A DNA stretch of 64,000 bases from Patescibacteria group bacterium (GTDB taxonomy: Bacteria > Patescibacteriota > Microgenomatia > UBA8517), in contig DASVCV010000001.1 in the NCBI GenBank assembly GCA_036381415.1, forward strand, positions 1,411-65,410. Direction: 5' to 3'. How positions within the stretch are numbered: the first letter of the stretch is position 1; the number at the start of each line of letters is the position of its first letter. This document shows, one piece after another, positions 3,071 to 15,751 of this stretch. Both the position numbers and the translations under genes were made by a program. The notes below the pieces were generated by a model. It was not told where the DNA came from and ran no database searches. It worked only from the letters and a program-made list of their open reading frames with translations.

Positions 3071-3086
3071 ATTGCTTTTAAATTAT

Positions 3087-5690
3087 ATGGATATTGGAAA
3101 AATACAACCAACAGAGATAACTACAGAACTATCTAGAAGCTATCTAGATTATGCAATGAGCGTCATTGTTGCACGCGCTCTTCCTGATATTAGGGATGGA
3201 TTAAAGCCAGTACACAGAAGAATTTTGTATGCCATGCAACAAATGGGTCTTCTTACTTCGGGACACACTAAAAGCGCCAAGGTAGTCGGAGAAGTTTTAG
3301 GAAAGTACCATCCTCATGGAGATATTGCTTTATATGACACTTTAGCTAGAATGGCACAGGATTTCTCAATGAGATATCCGTTAGTTGATGGGCAAGGAAA
3401 CTTTGGAAGTATTGATGGAGATCCTCCTGCTGCTATGAGGTATACAGAGGTAAAGCTTGCAAAAATTTCAGGATATCTTCTTTCTGATATTGAAAAGGAA
3501 ACAGTTGATTTTACAGACAACTTTGATGCCACTTTAAAAGAGCCTCTTGTTCTTCCTGCTCTTCTTCCAAATTTGCTTCTAATGGGGTCTGAGGGAATTG
3601 CAGTTGGAATGGCTACTAAAATCCCACCTCATAACTTAGGCGAAGTAATTGATGCAGTTGTTGCAGCAATTAAAAAAGGAAAACCAATCGTTGATGAGCA
3701 AAAGCATGAAGAAGAAAGCGATTTCTTTATTAAAAGAATTGAGTTAATTGCAGCTGGAGAGAAAAAAGAATTGAGCCAGGAAGAAATACATCCAACTTCA
3801 GTTTCTTTTGAAAGCCCAATAACAATTGAGGAATTGGCAGAATTTATTCAAGGACCAGATTTTCCAACAGGAGGAGCAATATATGATGCCAAATCTTTAG
3901 TAGATGTATATGCAACAGGACGTGGCAAAATTAGTGTACGTGGTATCGCAACCATTAAAGAAGGAGATAAAGGGAAGATGCAGATTATTATTTCTGAGAT
4001 TCCTTACCAGGTAAATAAAAGTTTGCTTGTAGCTCAGATTGCAGATTTGGTACGCGAAAAGAAAATTGTAGGAATATCTAATCTAAGGGATGAGTCAGAC
4101 AAAGACGGTCTTACTATTGCAATTGATTTAAAAAGAGATGCAAAACCAAAATCTGTTCTTAACAATCTTTACAAACACACAAGACTTCAAATTTCATTCC
4201 CTGCAAACTTTGTTGCCTTAATTGACGGGACTCCATATACAGTCAACTTAAAACAAATAATTATAGAGTACATTAAACACAGACAAAAAGTTGTAGTTAG
4301 ACGCACACTTTTTGATTTAACAGCAGCCAAAAAAAGAGCACATATTTTAGAAGGGTTAAAAATAGCCCTTGATAACTTGGATGCTGTTATTAAAACAATT
4401 AGAGCTTCTAAAACCCAAGATGAAGCAAAAGTAAACTTGGTTAAGAAATTTGAATTAAGTGAAATTCAGGCAACTGCAATTTTGGATATGCAGCTAAGAA
4501 GACTTGCTGCTTTGGAAAGAGACAAAATTGAAGCAGAGTATCAGGAAATGAAGAAAAGGATTGATGAGCTTACTTTTATACTTAAAAATCCACAAAAGGT
4601 ATTAGATATTATTGTTGATGAAGTAACAGAGTTAAAAGAAAAGTATGGAGATAAAAGACAGACAAAAATCTACAAACAAAAAATAGGGGAGTTTAGTGAA
4701 GAAGACTTGGTTGCAAAAGAAGAAACCTTAATTGCAGTTACTAAAACTGGATACATTAAAAGAGTTGCAATGAATGCATTTAGAGCGCAAAAAAGAGGCG
4801 GGAAAGGAGTTCTTGGAATGACAACAAAAGAAGAAGATGAAATACAACACCTTATCTCTTCTTCAACCCATGACACAATATTATTCTTTACAGATAGAGG
4901 AAGAGTTTTTGGAACAAAAGCCTGGGACATTCCAGAAGGATCTAGACAAGCCAAAGGACAGGCACTTGTTAATATTATTAATCTAGAACAGGGAGAACAA
5001 ATTAAATCAATACTTCCTGTTAATGGAAAAGGAAGCCACTTAATTATGGCTACAGCAAAAGGCAATATTAAAAAGACAAAGTTGGGAGAATTTTCAAACT
5101 TAAGAGCAAACGGGCTAATTGCAATTAAGATGGATAAAACAGACAGTCTGGTTACTGTACAAGCAACAAGCGGTGAAGACTATGTACTTCTTCTTACTAA
5201 GCAAGGGAAAGCAATAAAGTTTAATGAAAAGGATGTAAGACCAATGGGAAGAGCAACAACTGGAGTAAGAGGAATAAGACTTGAAGCCCAAGATCAACTT
5301 ATCGGCATGGAAGTGTTTCCCAAAAAGGAACCAGTAGTGGAAGATAAACGCAAGAAAGTATTTAGAGATATACTTACAATTTCTGAAAGAGGACTTGGAA
5401 AAAGAACTGGGGTGCATTTATTCCCAGCACAAAAAAGAGGAGGAAAGGGAGTTAAGGCTGCAGTTGTTACAACTAAAACTGGACCATTGGCATCAGCAAT
5501 CATGGTAACTGCCAATATTGGACAGATAATAATGACAAGTAAGTATGGGCAAGTGGTGAGACTAACATTAAAAGAAATTCCACAGCTTGGAAGGGCAACT
5601 CAAGGAGTAATATTAATGAGATTTGCAGACAAGACAGATTGTGTTGCAGCAGTTACACCTTTAGAGAAAACTTCAGAAGAAGAGGAATAA
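3087..5690 (+). CDS. gyrA: DNA gyrase subunit A
   Basis: [33 protein letters not shown] and HPHGD motifs, GPDFPTGG, C-terminal beta-pinwheel repeats. ATG at 3087 matches the canonical N-terminus; the ORF track begins at an upstream TTG at 3072. Confidence 0.95.
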
Positions 5691-6013: not shown

Positions 6014-6958
6014 CTATTTACTTCTTCCATGGAAGCTTTGATGTATATCTTTTAACTGTTTATTAGTTACATGGGTGTATATCTGGGTTGTAGACACATT
6101 TTTATGTCCTAACATTTCCTGGACACTTCTTAAGTCTGCACCTGCCATGAGGAGATCTGTTGCAAAACTGTGTCTAAGGACATGAGGTGTAGCTTCAACT
6201 GGAAGTTTTACTTTTTTAACATATTTTTTTACCATTCTTTGAATTGATCGGGGAGTAAGACGCATTTTTTCATCTGGTGTTGTTGGATCGATATTCCCCT
6301 TATGTCTAACAAACAAAGGCTTATAATGGTCTTCTCTTGCTCTTAAGTAAATTTTTAGCCAATCAGCAGCCCTTGTTGAAAGAAATACAACCCTTGCTCT
6401 ACCTCCTTTTCCTACAACTCCAAACTCACGCCTTTCCAGGTCTACCTTTTCTTTATCTAATTTAGTCAGCTCTGAGACACGAAGTCCAGTTGAAAATAAA
6501 ACTTCTAAAATTGCCTTATCTCTTTTTCCCTGTATTGTTGATAGGGTAGGGGCATTAAGAAGTCTGTCTACATTTTCCCCTGTTAGAAACTTTACCTGCC
6601 TGTCTTCAATTTTTGGCAAATCTATTTTTTCAGGAGAAATAACTTGGAAATCATGCTTAATCAGCCACTTTAAAAAAGATCTTAGAGCTATTACATGGTA
6701 GCCTTGAGTCTTTTTGGTTAAGACTCCTCCTTTTCCATCAGGAAGCTCAGAAAGATATGCTCTATAGTCACTAATTGTAGATTGGTCTATGTTTTCCAGA
6801 GTTTTAGATTCGCCAACCCAGTTTGAAAAGCGGGTCAAATAGTGTTTGTAGTTTCTAATTGTGAGGGGAGAGGAGGCTTTTTCTACTTGAAGGTACTTTA
6901 AAAATTCGTCAATTTTTCGGTCAAGGTCGGTAAGTGGCTTTGTTTGGGCAGAGTCCAT
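6014..6958 (-). CDS. tyrosine site-specific recombinase (XerC/XerD family)
   Basis: Catalytic boxes RVSELTKL, HVLRHSFAT, LGHKNVSTTQIYTHV (R, HxxR, Y) and an N-terminal SAM-like core-binding domain. Confidence 0.9.
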   Translation of the reverse strand: MDSAQTKPLTDLDRKIDEFLKYLQVEKASSPLTIRNYKHYLTRFSNWVGESKTLENIDQSTISDYRAYLSELPDGKGGVLTKKTQGYHVIALRSFLKWLIKHDFQVISPEKIDLPKIEDRQVKFLTGENVDRLLNAPTLSTIQGKRDKAILEVLFSTGLRVSELTKLDKEKVDLERREFGVVGKGGRARVVFLSTRAADWLKIYLRAREDHYKPLFVRHKGNIDPTTPDEKMRLTPRSIQRMVKKYVKKVKLPVEATPHVLRHSFATDLLMAGADLRSVQEMLGHKNVSTTQIYTHVTNKQLKDIHQSFHGRSK

Positions 6959-7228
6959 ACTAATAACTTGTAATTAATATTATTTAAACTAACATTAATT
7001 TTTCTAAATTCAGTCTATAATCTCAAAAGGCAGTTGTCAATATTGTGCGACATCTATTAGCTATTAAAAGCTAAGGAGTTTGTACAGTCAATATTAGCAC
7101 TCTATTTTTAGAAGATAAACGACTTCTTGTATTTATTAACACCCTATGCACTTATGTGTCTTATAAAGGCATTTACCTTCCTTAGCCTGACATCACCAAA
7201 TGCGTTTTAAGGCCTGTCATTTTCGAAA

Positions 7229-7248
7229 GACGACATATTAGTCGTCTA
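7229..7248. repeat. perfect 7-bp inverted repeat with 6-bp spacer (AGACGAC ATATTA GTCGTCT), candidate recombinase core site
   Basis: Read directly from the sequence. The geometry resembles dif/lox-type core sites. Confidence 0.4.
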
Positions 7249-7937
7249 AGTGATAATCCCGTATTTTCGGGCCAATCACTTAACGGGGGAGAAGAGTGGT
7301 TCCATAGAGAAGCGGGCTAGATAGGCAGTGAGGCTAAATAGGCTTAAACCGAAATAAAAGGCGAATATTTTTTAATTTTGGTCCAAAATCAAAGAAATAA
7401 AGGTGTGTTTGAAACCTGTTACGAAGACTGCAAAATTGTTCTATGACAACAAATCTTATTAGAACCACTACACTCTGCACAGTAAATATAGTACGTCGCA
7501 AAAGTATCATTGTGCGACAGTATAATTAAAGTACTCTGTTAGGTATCTAGTACCCATTTTTCTTTTATTAGACTTCGTGTAATGACTTACAAGGGCATCA
7601 AACTATCTTGGTCTTATGATTAAACCTACTCCTCTAAGGGAGTATGTGTCTTATGTTCCTACTAATAGCGCTTATTAGGCTCGTTTTATTCGTAAGTGCA
7701 GCACTTTAAGGGAGCTTATGTTGACGTATATAGAGAAAAGGTGTGTAAGAATTGTGAGGAAAATGCGTCGCTATTTCTTATTTTTGTGCCTAGTAACTAT
7801 ATCAAAGCATAACAGATTTTAAGTTTTGATTTCGTGAAAATAACCTATAATATTTGTGAAAACCTCTCCTCTTTCTCAACCATACCACTATTAAATTATA
7901 GGATATTATAGCCTCCTCCCCTGCTCTAGAGGTATCT

Positions 7938-7990
7938 GTCTTTTTTTTGCGGAATTTAAAAAAAATTAGCTTCAAGTTGAGGCTAGCCGT
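7938..7990 (-). terminator. putative rho-independent terminator of the membrane-protein/yebC operon (minus strand)
   Basis: Minus-strand hairpin agcctcaa...ttgaagct followed by a T8 run, immediately after the stop at 7991. An A8/T8 pair flanks GCGGAATTT. Confidence 0.4.
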
Positions 7991-8764
7991 TTAGCCCCAG
8001 TGTGTTGCAAAAAGCATTGTTATAAATACTACTAAGCCTACTGTGAGGTATTCCCTAACTGTAGCCTTAAATAGCCTCCCTTCGAGCTTGGCTTGGCCTA
8101 AACCTAAGAGCATATAAACTCCTACTGTTAAGAAAAGGGAGCCTACCACAACTGTTACTGGCCAGAAGAAAAGAAGCACTGCAATTTCCCCTATCCCCAA
8201 ACTTGAGATGAGTGTATAGAAAAAAGTTTTACTAGCTAAAATATTTTTTTGTTCCAAGACGCTAATCCAAAACCCTTGAAGGAAAAGGGCAAATGAAGAA
8301 GCAACAACCCCTAAGGTTGTAATCCAAATTTGCGCTTTGATGGAAAGAATTGCATCAAAAAGAAGAAATGAGGTAAGAAGAGTTAATACAAATCCAACTC
8401 CCCTAGCTGCTCTTACCAATGCAATTGTTCTAACTGCTGAAACTGTAAAAATGTTTGATGTTAGACAAAGTGCATATATTCCCAATCCAAAAAGAATTAC
8501 AACTGGAATTCTGGCAAAGATAGTAGCAGGAAGAAGGAACCAAAAAGTTCCTACTCCTAAGGTATAAAGAGCAGGAAGAACAAGAGTTAAAAGCGTCCAG
8601 TTCCTACCTAGGCCCTCCCAGAGCGACCAAACAAAAAGAACAACAGTCAATAGAGTTAAAACTCCAATTGCTAAAAAGCGGTAATTATTATCTAGAAAGT
8701 TAATACCTATAAAGCCAAGTGAAAGTATAAGGGAGGTAAAAACAAATTTTTGTCTTTTTGTCAT
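7991..8764 (-). CDS. polytopic integral membrane protein, hypothetical
   Basis: About 8 predicted TM helices. 1-nt overlap with yebC suggests co-transcription. Confidence 0.5.
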   Translation of the reverse strand: MTKRQKFVFTSLILSLGFIGINFLDNNYRFLAIGVLTLLTVVLFVWSLWEGLGRNWTLLTLVLPALYTLGVGTFWFLLPATIFARIPVVILFGLGIYALCLTSNIFTVSAVRTIALVRAARGVGFVLTLLTSFLLFDAILSIKAQIWITTLGVVASSFALFLQGFWISVLEQKNILASKTFFYTLISSLGIGEIAVLLFFWPVTVVVGSLFLTVGVYMLLGLGQAKLEGRLFKATVREYLTVGLVVFITMLFATHWG

Positions 8765-9483
8765 TAATTAGAGGTTGCCAAATTGGTATAAACTTTTTGA
8801 ACATCATCGTGTTCATGAAGAGTGTCAAGAAGTTTTGTTGCTTTTTCTATTTGGTCAGGGTCTGATAATTCTTGATAGTTTTTGGGTCTTTGAGTCAACT
8901 CTGTTGTTGTGACTTTAAAGCCTGCATCAATTAACTTTTTTTGTACACTAAAAAGATCATTTGGAGCAACATATACCTCTATTGAATCACCTGCGTCTTC
9001 AACATCTGCTGCACCTAGGTCAATGAGTTTTAGCATTTGTTCATCTGCATTTCCCTCTTTTTCTACAATTAAAAGCCCCATGTGATCAAAGTTGAAAGAG
9101 ACTGCCCCTGGACCTGCAAACTTTCCCCCGCTCTTGTCAAAAATATTTTTAATTTCATTTGCAGTTCTATTCCTATTATCAGTTCCTGCTTCTACCATTA
9201 TTCCAATTCCACCTGGTCCAAACCCTTCATATGTTATTTCTTCAAGCTCGGCTGAATTTTCTGCTTTGGAAATGGCTCTTTCTATATTTTCCTTAGGCAT
9301 ACTTACGGCACGGGCTTTTTCCACTATAACTCTTAATTTAAAATTAGAATCAGGATTAGGACCTCCACCTGTTTTTGCTGCAATTGTTATTTGACGGGCA
9401 AGCTTGGAAAAAACTTGTCCACGAGCTGCATCTTTGAGCTCTTTTTGCCTGTGAGTTGTTGCGTAATGAGAATGTCCGCTCAT
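8764..9483 (-). CDS. yebC: YebC/PmpR family probable transcriptional regulator
   Basis: MSGHSHYATTHRQKELKDAARGQVFSKLARQITIAAKTGGGPNP matches the YebC N-terminus. The ORF track extends 42 codons further upstream to 9609. Confidence 0.8.
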   Translation of the reverse strand: MSGHSHYATTHRQKELKDAARGQVFSKLARQITIAAKTGGGPNPDSNFKLRVIVEKARAVSMPKENIERAISKAENSAELEEITYEGFGPGGIGIMVEAGTDNRNRTANEIKNIFDKSGGKFAGPGAVSFNFDHMGLLIVEKEGNADEQMLKLIDLGAADVEDAGDSIEVYVAPNDLFSVQKKLIDAGFKVTTTELTQRPKNYQELSDPDQIEKATKLLDTLHEHDDVQKVYTNLATSN

Positions 9484-9581
9484 ATAGGTTACAAGCCCAA
9501 TTATACACTTGACTTTAGATATGGGCAATTTATACTCAGTAATGAAATCCGCTTCTTTAAGTAAGCGGAGTTTATTAAAAA

Positions 9582-10148
9582 ATGGATCCAGAGCTTGCCC
9601 AGAGAGCAATTACCGCTGCGTTAAACGGAGATTGGCACCAGGCCGTTAAGGTAAATACCCAAATTCTTCAAATAGAACCTGACAATATTGATGCCTTAAA
9701 TAGAATTGCCAGGGCTTACTGTGAAATTGGAAACGTTGAAAAGGCAAAAAGAACCTCGAAAAAAGTTTTAAAGATAGATCCTTTTAACGGAATTGCCTGC
9801 AAGTGCCTTAAAAAGTGGGAAAGAGTTAATGTGACAAATGGAAGCTCAAGCAAAACTGGTCCCCTTGCCTTTTTAGAAGAACCTGGGAAGACTAAAATTG
9901 TAAAGCTAATTAATTTAGGAGATTCAAAGATCATTGCTAATCTGGACTGCGGTGATGAAGTAAGGCTTATTCCCCACTCCCATAGCGTATCTGTCACAAC
10001 AATGGAGGGAAAACATGTTGGTAAAATTCCTGATGATTTGGCTATGAGATTAATTAATTTAATGAGAAATGGTGGAACATACCAAACTCTCATAAAGGTG
10101 GCAGAACCAGAAGGTGTAAAGATATTTATCAGAGGAATTTTTCTTTAA
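9582..10148 (+). CDS. TPR-repeat protein, hypothetical
   Basis: N-terminal TPR-like helical repeats (DALNRIARAYCEIGNVEKAKRTSKKVLKIDP). Confidence 0.55.
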   Translation: MDPELAQRAITAALNGDWHQAVKVNTQILQIEPDNIDALNRIARAYCEIGNVEKAKRTSKKVLKIDPFNGIACKCLKKWERVNVTNGSSSKTGPLAFLEEPGKTKIVKLINLGDSKIIANLDCGDEVRLIPHSHSVSVTTMEGKHVGKIPDDLAMRLINLMRNGGTYQTLIKVAEPEGVKIFIRGIFL

Positions 10149-15667: not shown

Positions 15668-15751
15668 GCCGGGGTGCTGAAATGGTATACAGAATAGTCT
15701 CAAAAACTATTGAGGCCTCGCCTCGTGAGGGTTCGAGTCCCTCTCCCGGCA
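15668..15751 (+). tRNA. tRNA-Leu (anticodon CAA), class II with long variable arm
   Basis: Acceptor stem GCCGGGG/UCCCGGC. D-arm with GG. Anticodon stem ATAGT/ACTAT, loop CTCAAAA. Variable-arm hairpin GAGGC-CTC-GCCTC. T-arm GAGGG TTCGAGT CCCTC. Discriminator A. No encoded CCA. Confidence 0.85.

Follow-up and report, generated by a model that had tools for sequence, protein, structure and literature searches.

A probable chromosome dimer-resolution site within a conserved non-coding block upstream of the xer gene of a Woesebacteria-like bacterium

Why does a gene-dense genome keep more than one kilobase free of genes directly upstream of the gene for a Xer-family tyrosine recombinase? The question is raised by positions 6959-7990 of a 64,000-nucleotide stretch of contig DASVCV010000001.1 from a Patescibacteria group bacterium (hereafter the window, meaning the whole stretch of DNA that was analysed). 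As the first-pass annotation of this sequence had described, this gap spans 1,032 bp, and none of the six frames holds an open reading frame (ORF) of at least 60 aa. It lies between xer and the gene of a DUF5656 protein, both on the minus strand, and the runner-up stretch free of such ORFs in the window is 172 bp long. All other gaps measure 353 bp or less (greedy gene calls of at least 90 aa). Its composition is ordinary and not low-complexity, with 31-40% GC vs. 35.8% for the window. Three explanations had been proposed for it: the cognate dif/att site region of the recombinase, a large structured non-coding RNA, or the remnant of an integrated element. The comparisons reported here favour the first, supported by a two-arm palindrome at a polarity switch and by the reuse of one of its arms at the xer promoter, and the gap is probably the chromosome dimer-resolution (dif) locus of a Woesebacteria-like bacterium of the Candidate Phyla Radiation (CPR).

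Related loci (given L numbers) were collected by means of a protein-seeded scan with the window recombinase, which yielded 80 loci with 56-78% identity from Woesebacteria, Levybacteria, Shapirobacteria, and other Microgenomates, and by a metagenome pattern scan that added 120 further loci with the same synteny. They share a near-invariant palindrome, GTCGYACAA-N6-TTTTRCGAC, whose arms are about 90-100% conserved and whose 6-bp spacer is variable. Among the protein-seeded loci the core consensus was GTCG[C/T]ACAAT-nnn-ACTTTT[G/A]CGAC, with the three most variable positions placed within the spacer and additional variation at arm position 5/20. Extended to an 11-6-11 form, it reads AYGTCGYAMAA-N6-TTKTRCGACRT, so that the inverted arms are near-identical, each being AYGTCGYAMAA. 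Whether the left arm has C or T was statistically independent of whether the right arm has G or A, C/A combinations being common, and this independent variation fits two protein half-sites, not a base-paired stem. The GTCGCA-N12-TGCGAC hairpin noted before is real as an inverted repeat, one base off at 7495-7518, but it behaves like a two-arm recombinase site. Similarly, the 11-mer ATTGTGCGACA does occur twice, at 7042-7052 and 7509-7519, one base to the left of the positions first given, with no third copy anywhere in the window. By window statistics this repeat is unremarkable (two or more matches in 8 of 100 shuffles, one mismatch allowed), and both copies lie inside islands conserved across the relatives.

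The palindrome was found once per locus in about 190 loci, once in the 64-kb window, and as a single site in each of five contigs of 0.79-1.19 Mb. The xer gene was constantly on one side and one strand of it, at a median distance of 1.1 kb (minimum 53 nt, maximum 5.5 kb), and in many lineages several genes separate the two. A sigma-70 promoter directly upstream of the palindrome was considered and rejected: a good -10 box was present in 36 of 173 loci, and a -35 box in 2 of those. The locus L029 lies at about 854.5 kb of the closed 1.079-Mb chromosome CP066686.1. A distant case is provided by the 210,725-bp contig Ga0209721_1000008, which is GC-rich and unlike Microgenomates (L143:7695-7718). 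Here the same palindrome, with the spacer TGTTAC, is situated inside the last codons of an unrelated gene of 400 aa, and a xer gene 54% identical to that of the window follows 35 nt later; the contig has none of the other motifs described below, neither DnaA nor T boxes. It keeps the palindrome and xer and nothing else of the conserved sequence around them, indicating that the palindrome travels with the recombinase gene and that the surrounding conserved sequence is separable from it.

The second line of evidence is a short polar word that reverses its orientation at the palindrome. In an unbiased scan of 6- to 8-mers outside the conserved block that surrounds the palindrome, performed on 179 non-identical loci, GGGGAG and AGGGGAG ranked first, and AGGGGAG was the most polarised heptamer, with 385 copies pointing toward the palindrome and 11 away from it. 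With gene strands given in xer orientation, the toward:away ratios were 126:1 in plus-strand and 6:1 in minus-strand genes of the left flank, and 95:5 and 98:5, respectively, in those of the right flank. The same polarity in all four gene classes indicates that the orientation of the word follows position and not the coding strand. The switch, which lies no further than about 100 bp from the core, was fine-mapped to between +24 and +200 nt of the palindrome, the bin from +100 to +200 holding 59 reverse and no forward copies of the motif. The density of AGGGGAG was 2-3 per kb beside the palindrome and 0.3-1 per kb out to 12 kb, compared with about 0.05 per kb on the disfavoured strand. In the window itself, all 10 copies, on the plus strand at 4685 and 6864 and on the minus strand at 7916, 8398, 10411, 11750, 22573, 28319, 34202, and 49135, point at 7495-7518, out to 41 kb, including two within opposite-strand genes. 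Moreover, GGGGAG forms the outermost conserved island of the block at one end, as its complement does at the other. Gene orientation, like the raw cumulative GC skew, also converges on the block. This distribution of AGGGGAG matches that of FtsK-orienting polar sequences (KOPS) and architecture-imparting sequences (AIMS) at dif sites. The copy at 6864-6870 lies antisense within the conserved SSPLT motif of xer, where it is encoded by GC-rich codons that are rare at 36% GC; because of these rare codons, it suggests selection on the DNA word itself.

The recombinase is the sole Xer homologue in the 64 kb. Its NCBIfam scores were 259 bits for XerC, 255 for XerD, and 230 for XerA_Arch, the last being the only one above its cutoff (220), and its matches among PDB entries included XerD (4e-43) and Pyrococcus abyssi XerA (1.5e-38). 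Its alignments with XerD of E. coli and XerA of P. abyssi span the full length and show the catalytic residues (R-K-HxxR-H-Y) in place. In 84 of 131 loci, a half-site of the palindrome was located no more than 200 nt from the start of xer; its median distance before the start was 51 nt, and it was placed 3-6 nt upstream of a TTGACA box. In view of this position next to a promoter-like sequence, the single arm at 7042-7052 probably serves xer autoregulation.

The same placement could be explained in another way, namely that the palindrome is a transcriptional operator and nothing more, bound by Xer or another dimeric regulator of xer and its neighbours, without any part in chromosomal recombination. 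Besides the single arm that abuts the xer -35 box in those 84 loci, in L165 the full palindrome lies at the start point of a TTGACA-17-TATCAT promoter, in L143 it lies close before xer, and a variable centre between arms would suit operators too. However, there is little reason to expect that an operator would sit exactly where a polar word reaching more than 10-40 kb to both sides reverses, or that it would be the only copy in contigs of megabase scale; several genes and a distance of 1-5.5 kb lie between the palindrome and xer in many lineages, and the same arms occur in phage contigs with no xer nearby. An exclusive operator function is thus unlikely, and the two roles are not mutually exclusive.

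Around the palindrome, approximately 750 bp of the gap (7186-7941) proved homologous in 61 of 66 usable protein-seeded loci by blastn followed by iterated nhmmer (query positions ~50-805). This block consists of near-invariant islands with spacers of variable length between them. The synteny YebC-DUF5656-block-xer was kept in about 180-190 loci, with the 3′ end of the DUF5656 gene preceding the block in every lineage; the block and xer are separated by further genes in Levybacteria-type loci, one for trehalase being an example. Among the species-representative metagenome-assembled genomes with the locus (L001-L080), many bear the label 'uncultured Gammaproteobacteria' or 'Pseudomonadales' and two an archaeal one (Aenigmarchaeum for L044, Bathyarchaeia for L062); these non-Microgenomates labels probably reflect mislabelled or contaminated bins. 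One bin, WY4.bin110, is the source of two different Xer loci (L006 and L076). The orientation of the block motifs was constant and their order lineage-dependent. Woesebacteria-type loci presented the TATAAT-palindrome, two TTTTCAC boxes, GATATAG repeats, and a DnaA box, whereas Levybacteria-type loci presented GATATAG repeats, TATAAT, the DnaA box, and the two TTTTCAC boxes. Changes of order like these agree with a group of DNA sites bound by proteins, and a folded RNA could hardly accommodate them.

The first-pass annotation had put forward a large structured RNA, and this explanation takes the block as a non-coding RNA of about 650-750 nt in which the palindrome is one hairpin. A long, ORF-free block of conserved islands and variable-length spacers would agree with it, as would the terminator-like hairpin after DUF5656 and the hairpin with T-run at 7228-7247 that bracket the block, the possible pairing of the GGGGAG and CTCCCC islands as a closing helix, and the fold z-scores of two loci (-3.2 for L001 and -2.4 for L021). 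The reordering of motifs between Woesebacteria-type and Levybacteria-type loci speaks against it, and so do the searches. The covariance-model scan with Rfam 15 returned nothing in the gap beyond chance-level matches (E up to 10), and there was no match at the gathering threshold in 11 relatives. Compensatory changes were not found in the 61-locus alignment, where a scan by mutual information with average product correction gave zero Watson-Crick covarying pairs and the two best hairpins paired in 79.6% of cells vs. 79.7% in column shuffles. The fold z-scores of seven homologues ranged from +1.2 to -3.2 (mean about -1), with no strand preference, and those of the window from -0.5 to -1.0. The palindrome arm positions vary independently, with abundant C/A combinations, and the closing helix was rejected, as the GGGGAG/CTCCCC islands are the innermost copies of the genome-wide polar word and not a local helix. 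A structured RNA is consequently a very unlikely explanation of the block. ARAGORN found no tmRNA or tRNA in 6500-8500; the sole gathering-level Rfam match in the window was an 84-nt tRNA at 15668-15751 on the plus strand.

Other features of the gap were also compared with the relatives. The hairpin at 7958-7986 is a probable terminator of the YebC-DUF5656 transcript, to judge from its sequence and position. The inverted repeat at 7228-7247 is conserved, its covariation being not above that of shuffles. The CCCG-N6-CGGG motif is present at 7258-7271 and the GGCTA[GA]ATAGGC boxes at 7315-7326 and 7332-7343, as had been noted; the latter sit where most relatives have a CCGAAC-N5-CCGAAT direct repeat, and L009 and L045 match them partially (CTATCTAG core). 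An exact 12-mer, TATGTGTCTTAT, occurs at 7153-7164 and 7643-7654, 490 bp apart, and may be due to chance; it is not conserved in relatives. A variable spacer holds one copy, and the other lies beyond the limits of the conserved block. A tandem duplication with a unit of about 480 bp, considered in view of repeat spacings of 467 and 490, was rejected on the grounds that local alignment of the two halves was no better than shuffles. Small conserved proteins were likewise discarded, as the 57-58 aa ORFs of the gap and the ~71-aa ORFs that relatives have at similar positions share no sequence.

The left half of the block holds motifs related to DnaA boxes, for which the R-type consensus is TTWTNCACA (PMC5043019). 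The two nTTTTCACr boxes fit this consensus at positions 2-8, and the TTTTCAC pair was present in 90 of 120 loci and never outside the block. A perfect DnaA box, TGTGGATAA, was found to the left of the palindrome, in one orientation, in 85 of 120 loci with full flanks, and in 106 of 120 when up to one mismatch was allowed; the perfect box lies 120-240 nt from the palindrome in Woesebacteria-type loci and 360-1020 nt in those of Levybacteria type. It is absent from 7186-7941 in the window and from L024 and L050, among others. The relatives thus have a three-box DnaA cluster in the left half of the block, of which the window retains two weaker boxes. Phased AT-rich repeats and an AT-rich stretch are also present. 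These DnaA-type motifs occur nowhere else in the 64-kb window or in the flanks of the relatives.

It could be argued from these motifs that the block functions as an origin of replication, or primarily as a locus for DnaA control of the type of datA or the DnaA-reactivating sequences (DARS), with the palindrome being incidental. The constant orientation of the perfect box, the match of the two T boxes to the consensus, the AT-rich repeats and stretch, and the exclusiveness of the motifs within the window would all agree with this, and DARS cores likewise have three boxes, one opposed to the other two (PMC6868365). Nevertheless, genes and polar word converge on the block, which is the opposite of what an origin would show, and this converging polarity excludes an origin. 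Neither dnaA nor dnaN is nearby, the window copy is without the perfect box, the geometry of the boxes is lineage-dependent, and L143 has the palindrome and xer without any boxes. Overall, this explanation is considered highly improbable, and a DnaA-binding accessory role of the left half is compatible with a dif locus.

Finally, the gap could represent a pseudogene that has decayed or the scar left by an integrated element, the last of the earlier candidates. The adjoining tyrosine recombinase might suggest so, as might the NT5C-like HAD 5′-nucleotidase gene (~240 aa) that lies between block and xer in many Woesebacteria (e.g., L001:5266-5964 and L015:5193-5924) and that the window is missing. 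However, the comparison of six NT5C-like proteins with 6700-8300 by tblastn gave nothing below E = 0.2, and no such gene or remnant was found in the window; no small ORF is conserved, neither flanking direct repeats nor pseudogene traces were found, and the YebC-DUF5656-block-xer order holds across roughly 180 distinct loci (about 190 in all), which contradicts an integrated remnant. This is the least credible of the explanations considered and can be regarded as extremely unlikely.

Arms of the same type were also encountered in viral sequences. With a relaxed spacer, GTCGYACAA-N6-TTTTRCGAC matched at least 120 IMG/VR contigs (L201-L320), with 107 distinct 40-mers and 30-61% GC, against a rough estimate of fewer than 10 matches expected by chance. 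Examples are L218:7329-7352, L263:527-550, and L279:12477-12500, and the spacers included TATATC, TATACA, TATGTA, and TAATCA, among others; the Microgenomates-type spacer gave zero matches in this viral scan. These sites were mostly intergenic, with no xer nearby and no GGGGAG polarity, and the ten neighbouring ORFs scanned in six of the contigs included genes for terminase, portal, helicase, and primase. No site was found in GenBank phages, where a 30-mer of a phage-type site gave chance partial matches only, and Rfam had no match at the phage sites. The site-bearing contigs may belong to tailed phages of uncultured hosts that would use the host Xer for integration or multimer resolution. One of them (L223) carries an array of 18 tRNA genes at 6991-9386.

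Several observations weigh against a dif locus. Its function does not require the conservation of a whole 750-bp block, including DnaA boxes. The counts of the polar motif stem from orthologous loci in synteny, which makes them less than fully independent, and in the window alone, with the block excluded, AGGGGAG (9:0) ranks 35th of 5,822 heptamers. The QRAQQ patch by which XerD contacts FtsK is absent from the window Xer, which has DEKM-R there, closer to XerA. A product of recombination, such as two sites flanking an insert, was not seen in the loci and contigs scanned for the site. In addition, GC skew at third-codon and four-fold positions keeps its sign across the block in nearly all relatives and across the whole 64-kb window; at the block, the four-fold skew shows a step from about 0.18 to about 0.09 and nothing more. 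In the window it has the same sign for plus- and minus-strand genes, with the plus strand G-rich by about 0.1, so that the 77% majority of its genes are on the C-rich strand. Given that the four-fold skew does not flip, the point where forks meet may miss the site, or the measure may be confounded or not report the direction of replication. The sign of the skew in the window, L024, and L050 is opposite to that of the remaining loci; a link between this reversal and the loss of the DnaA box was weakened by L067, which has the box further out.

The features of the locus and of its surroundings are collected in Table 1.

Table 1. Positions of the dif-like core, the conserved block, and neighbouring features in the window
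Feature	Position	Strand	Remarks
Dif-like core	7495-7518		Minus-strand reading GTCGCACAA-TGATAC-TTTTGCGAC
Core arms	7510-7518 and 7495-7503		Spacer 7504-7509; 11-6-11 version 7493-7520
Conserved non-coding block	7186-7941	-	Orientation of xer and DUF5656; iterated nhmmer
Single core arm TGTCGCACAAT	7042-7052	-	Directly upstream of xer -35 box; 20-nt island conserved
xer promoter-like site TTGACA-17-TAGACT	7012-7040	-	10/12 match
Xer-family tyrosine recombinase, 314 aa	6014-6958	-	Pfam Phage_integrase and SAM-like N-terminal domain
Innermost AGGGGAG, DUF5656 side	7916-7922	-	Points at core; conserved island
Innermost GGGGAG, xer side	7286-7291	+	Points at core; CTCCCC in xer orientation in relatives
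T box 1, GTTTTCACA	7855-7863	-	
T box 2, ATTTTCACG	7833-7841	-	22 bp after box 1, same orientation
GATATAGTT box	7795-7803	-	One copy in window; 2-3 tandem copies with 11-bp period in relatives
Conserved CCTATAAT island	7895-7902	-	Palindrome CCTATAATTATAGG in relatives
Hairpin and T-run just 3′ of DUF5656 stop	7958-7986	-	Read from sequence; not called by the consensus scan
AGACGAC-N6-GTCGTCT inverted repeat, then T-run	7228-7247	-	Possible terminator
Conserved right-end box GGCCTTAAAACGCATTTGGTGATGT	7190-7214	-	In relatives, TTGGTG 15-18 nt upstream of TATAAT-like box before next gene
DUF5656 protein gene	7991-8764	-	3′ end adjoins the block on the left in all lineages
YebC gene	8764-9609	-	Precedes DUF5656 gene
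gyrA	3072-5690	+	Converges on gap from xer side

The locus resembles several known systems without being identical to any of them. In the single-recombinase systems XerS/difSL and XerH/difH, dif lies next to the recombinase gene (PMC5357621). These systems, from streptococci and lactococci and from Helicobacter and Campylobacter, respectively, share with the present locus the use of one Xer, a near-palindromic site linked to its gene, and the location of the site in a region of terminus-like polarity. In contrast, the arms are unrelated (GTCGYACAA/TTTTRCGAC here, TTTCCGAAAA/TTTTCTTGAAA in difSL, and AGTTATGAAAA/AAAAGTTTGA in difH), the spacer has 6 bp vs. 11 bp in difSL, the window Xer scores 133 bits vs. 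the XerS cutoff of 267 and is XerC/D/A-like instead, and the site is within a 750-bp conserved block. Archaeal dif sites are 11-6-11, intergenic, and single-copy, with conserved flanks and a switch of short polar words (PMC2958812). The present site likewise is a single-copy, near-perfect 11-6-11 inverted repeat with conserved flanks and switching polar words; moreover, the window Xer scores above the XerA_Arch cutoff, and where XerD has its RQ motif it carries a K-type motif. The differences are that the host here is a bacterium of the CPR and that in Thermococcales xerA is usually not beside dif. The arm sequences of the window differ from those of archaeal dif as they do from those of difSL and difH.

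With E. coli XerCD/dif and its KOPS (GGGNAGGG) and AIMS, the locus shares the 28-bp 11-6-11 architecture and a strand-biased G-rich word that becomes denser toward the site and flips there. The inner arm bases, CGCAcAA, resemble those of E. coli dif, CGCATAA. On the other hand, a single recombinase with symmetric arms is likely here, the polar word is the heptamer AGGGGAG, the residues of the contact between XerD and FtsK-gamma are missing from the window Xer, and the four-fold-site GC skew does not flip at the site. The plasmid sites cer and psi also combine a Xer core with a conserved one-sided flank of a few hundred base pairs of putatively protein-binding DNA, and flanking DNA of this kind could impose resolution selectivity; here the site is chromosomal, with DnaA-type boxes and GATATAG repeats and not ArgR, PepA, or ArcA sites. 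Finally, the non-coding cluster of three DnaA boxes in the relatives, one of them opposed, at a fixed chromosomal position is shared with E. coli DARS1, DARS2, and datA, but its spacing and geometry are not conserved between lineages, and the lone opposed box is the perfect one, lost in the window. A search of the full-text literature for the arm strings returned unrelated primer sequences only, and nothing specific was found on dif, oriC, or non-coding RNA in CPR bacteria.

If the gap is a dif locus, Xer monomers would bind both arms and synapse two sister copies, and strand exchange across the spacer would turn a chromosome dimer into monomers. The polar AGGGGAG heptamers would act like KOPS or AIMS, guiding a DNA translocase or another reader of polarity to the site, and through the extra arm by the xer -35 box the recombinase would control the promoter of its own gene. 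What remains of the 750-bp block would be accessory or regulatory sequence at the level of DNA and not RNA. It combines two DnaA-type boxes (relatives have three), GATATAG repeats in phase, a hairpin resembling a terminator, and a promoter region that belongs to the next gene; its likeliest roles would be those of accessory sites for the recombination complex or of a DnaA-binding control locus at the site. A bolder proposal, rather doubtful at present, is that in Microgenomates dif forms a fixed part of a composite region of control, about 750 bp long, whose DnaA-box cluster and helically phased repeats would recruit an initiator or cell-cycle factor to the point of polarity convergence and thereby couple the completion of replication and dimer resolution to the next initiation. 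To our knowledge, a dif site within a composite DnaA-box control region has not been described before.

What the data support is a Xer/dif module of a CPR bacterium, distinguished by a site sequence of its own, by a candidate polar word, and by the unusual size of its conserved flank. As far as we know, no CPR bacterium can be grown in culture on its own, and knowledge of how these bacteria maintain their chromosomes comes from gene lists only. The candidate dif sequence, the polar word AGGGGAG, and the linked xer gene are testable handles on the segregation of these tiny genomes, and site and word together offer a practical marker of the point of polarity convergence in CPR genome curation. 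It follows from this case that an ORF-free stretch can be long and conserved without being an RNA. The DnaA-box cluster beside the site raises the question of whether the control of initiation is tied to this locus, and the presence of the same arms in at least 120 phage contigs raises that of whether phages of uncultured hosts exploit Xer.

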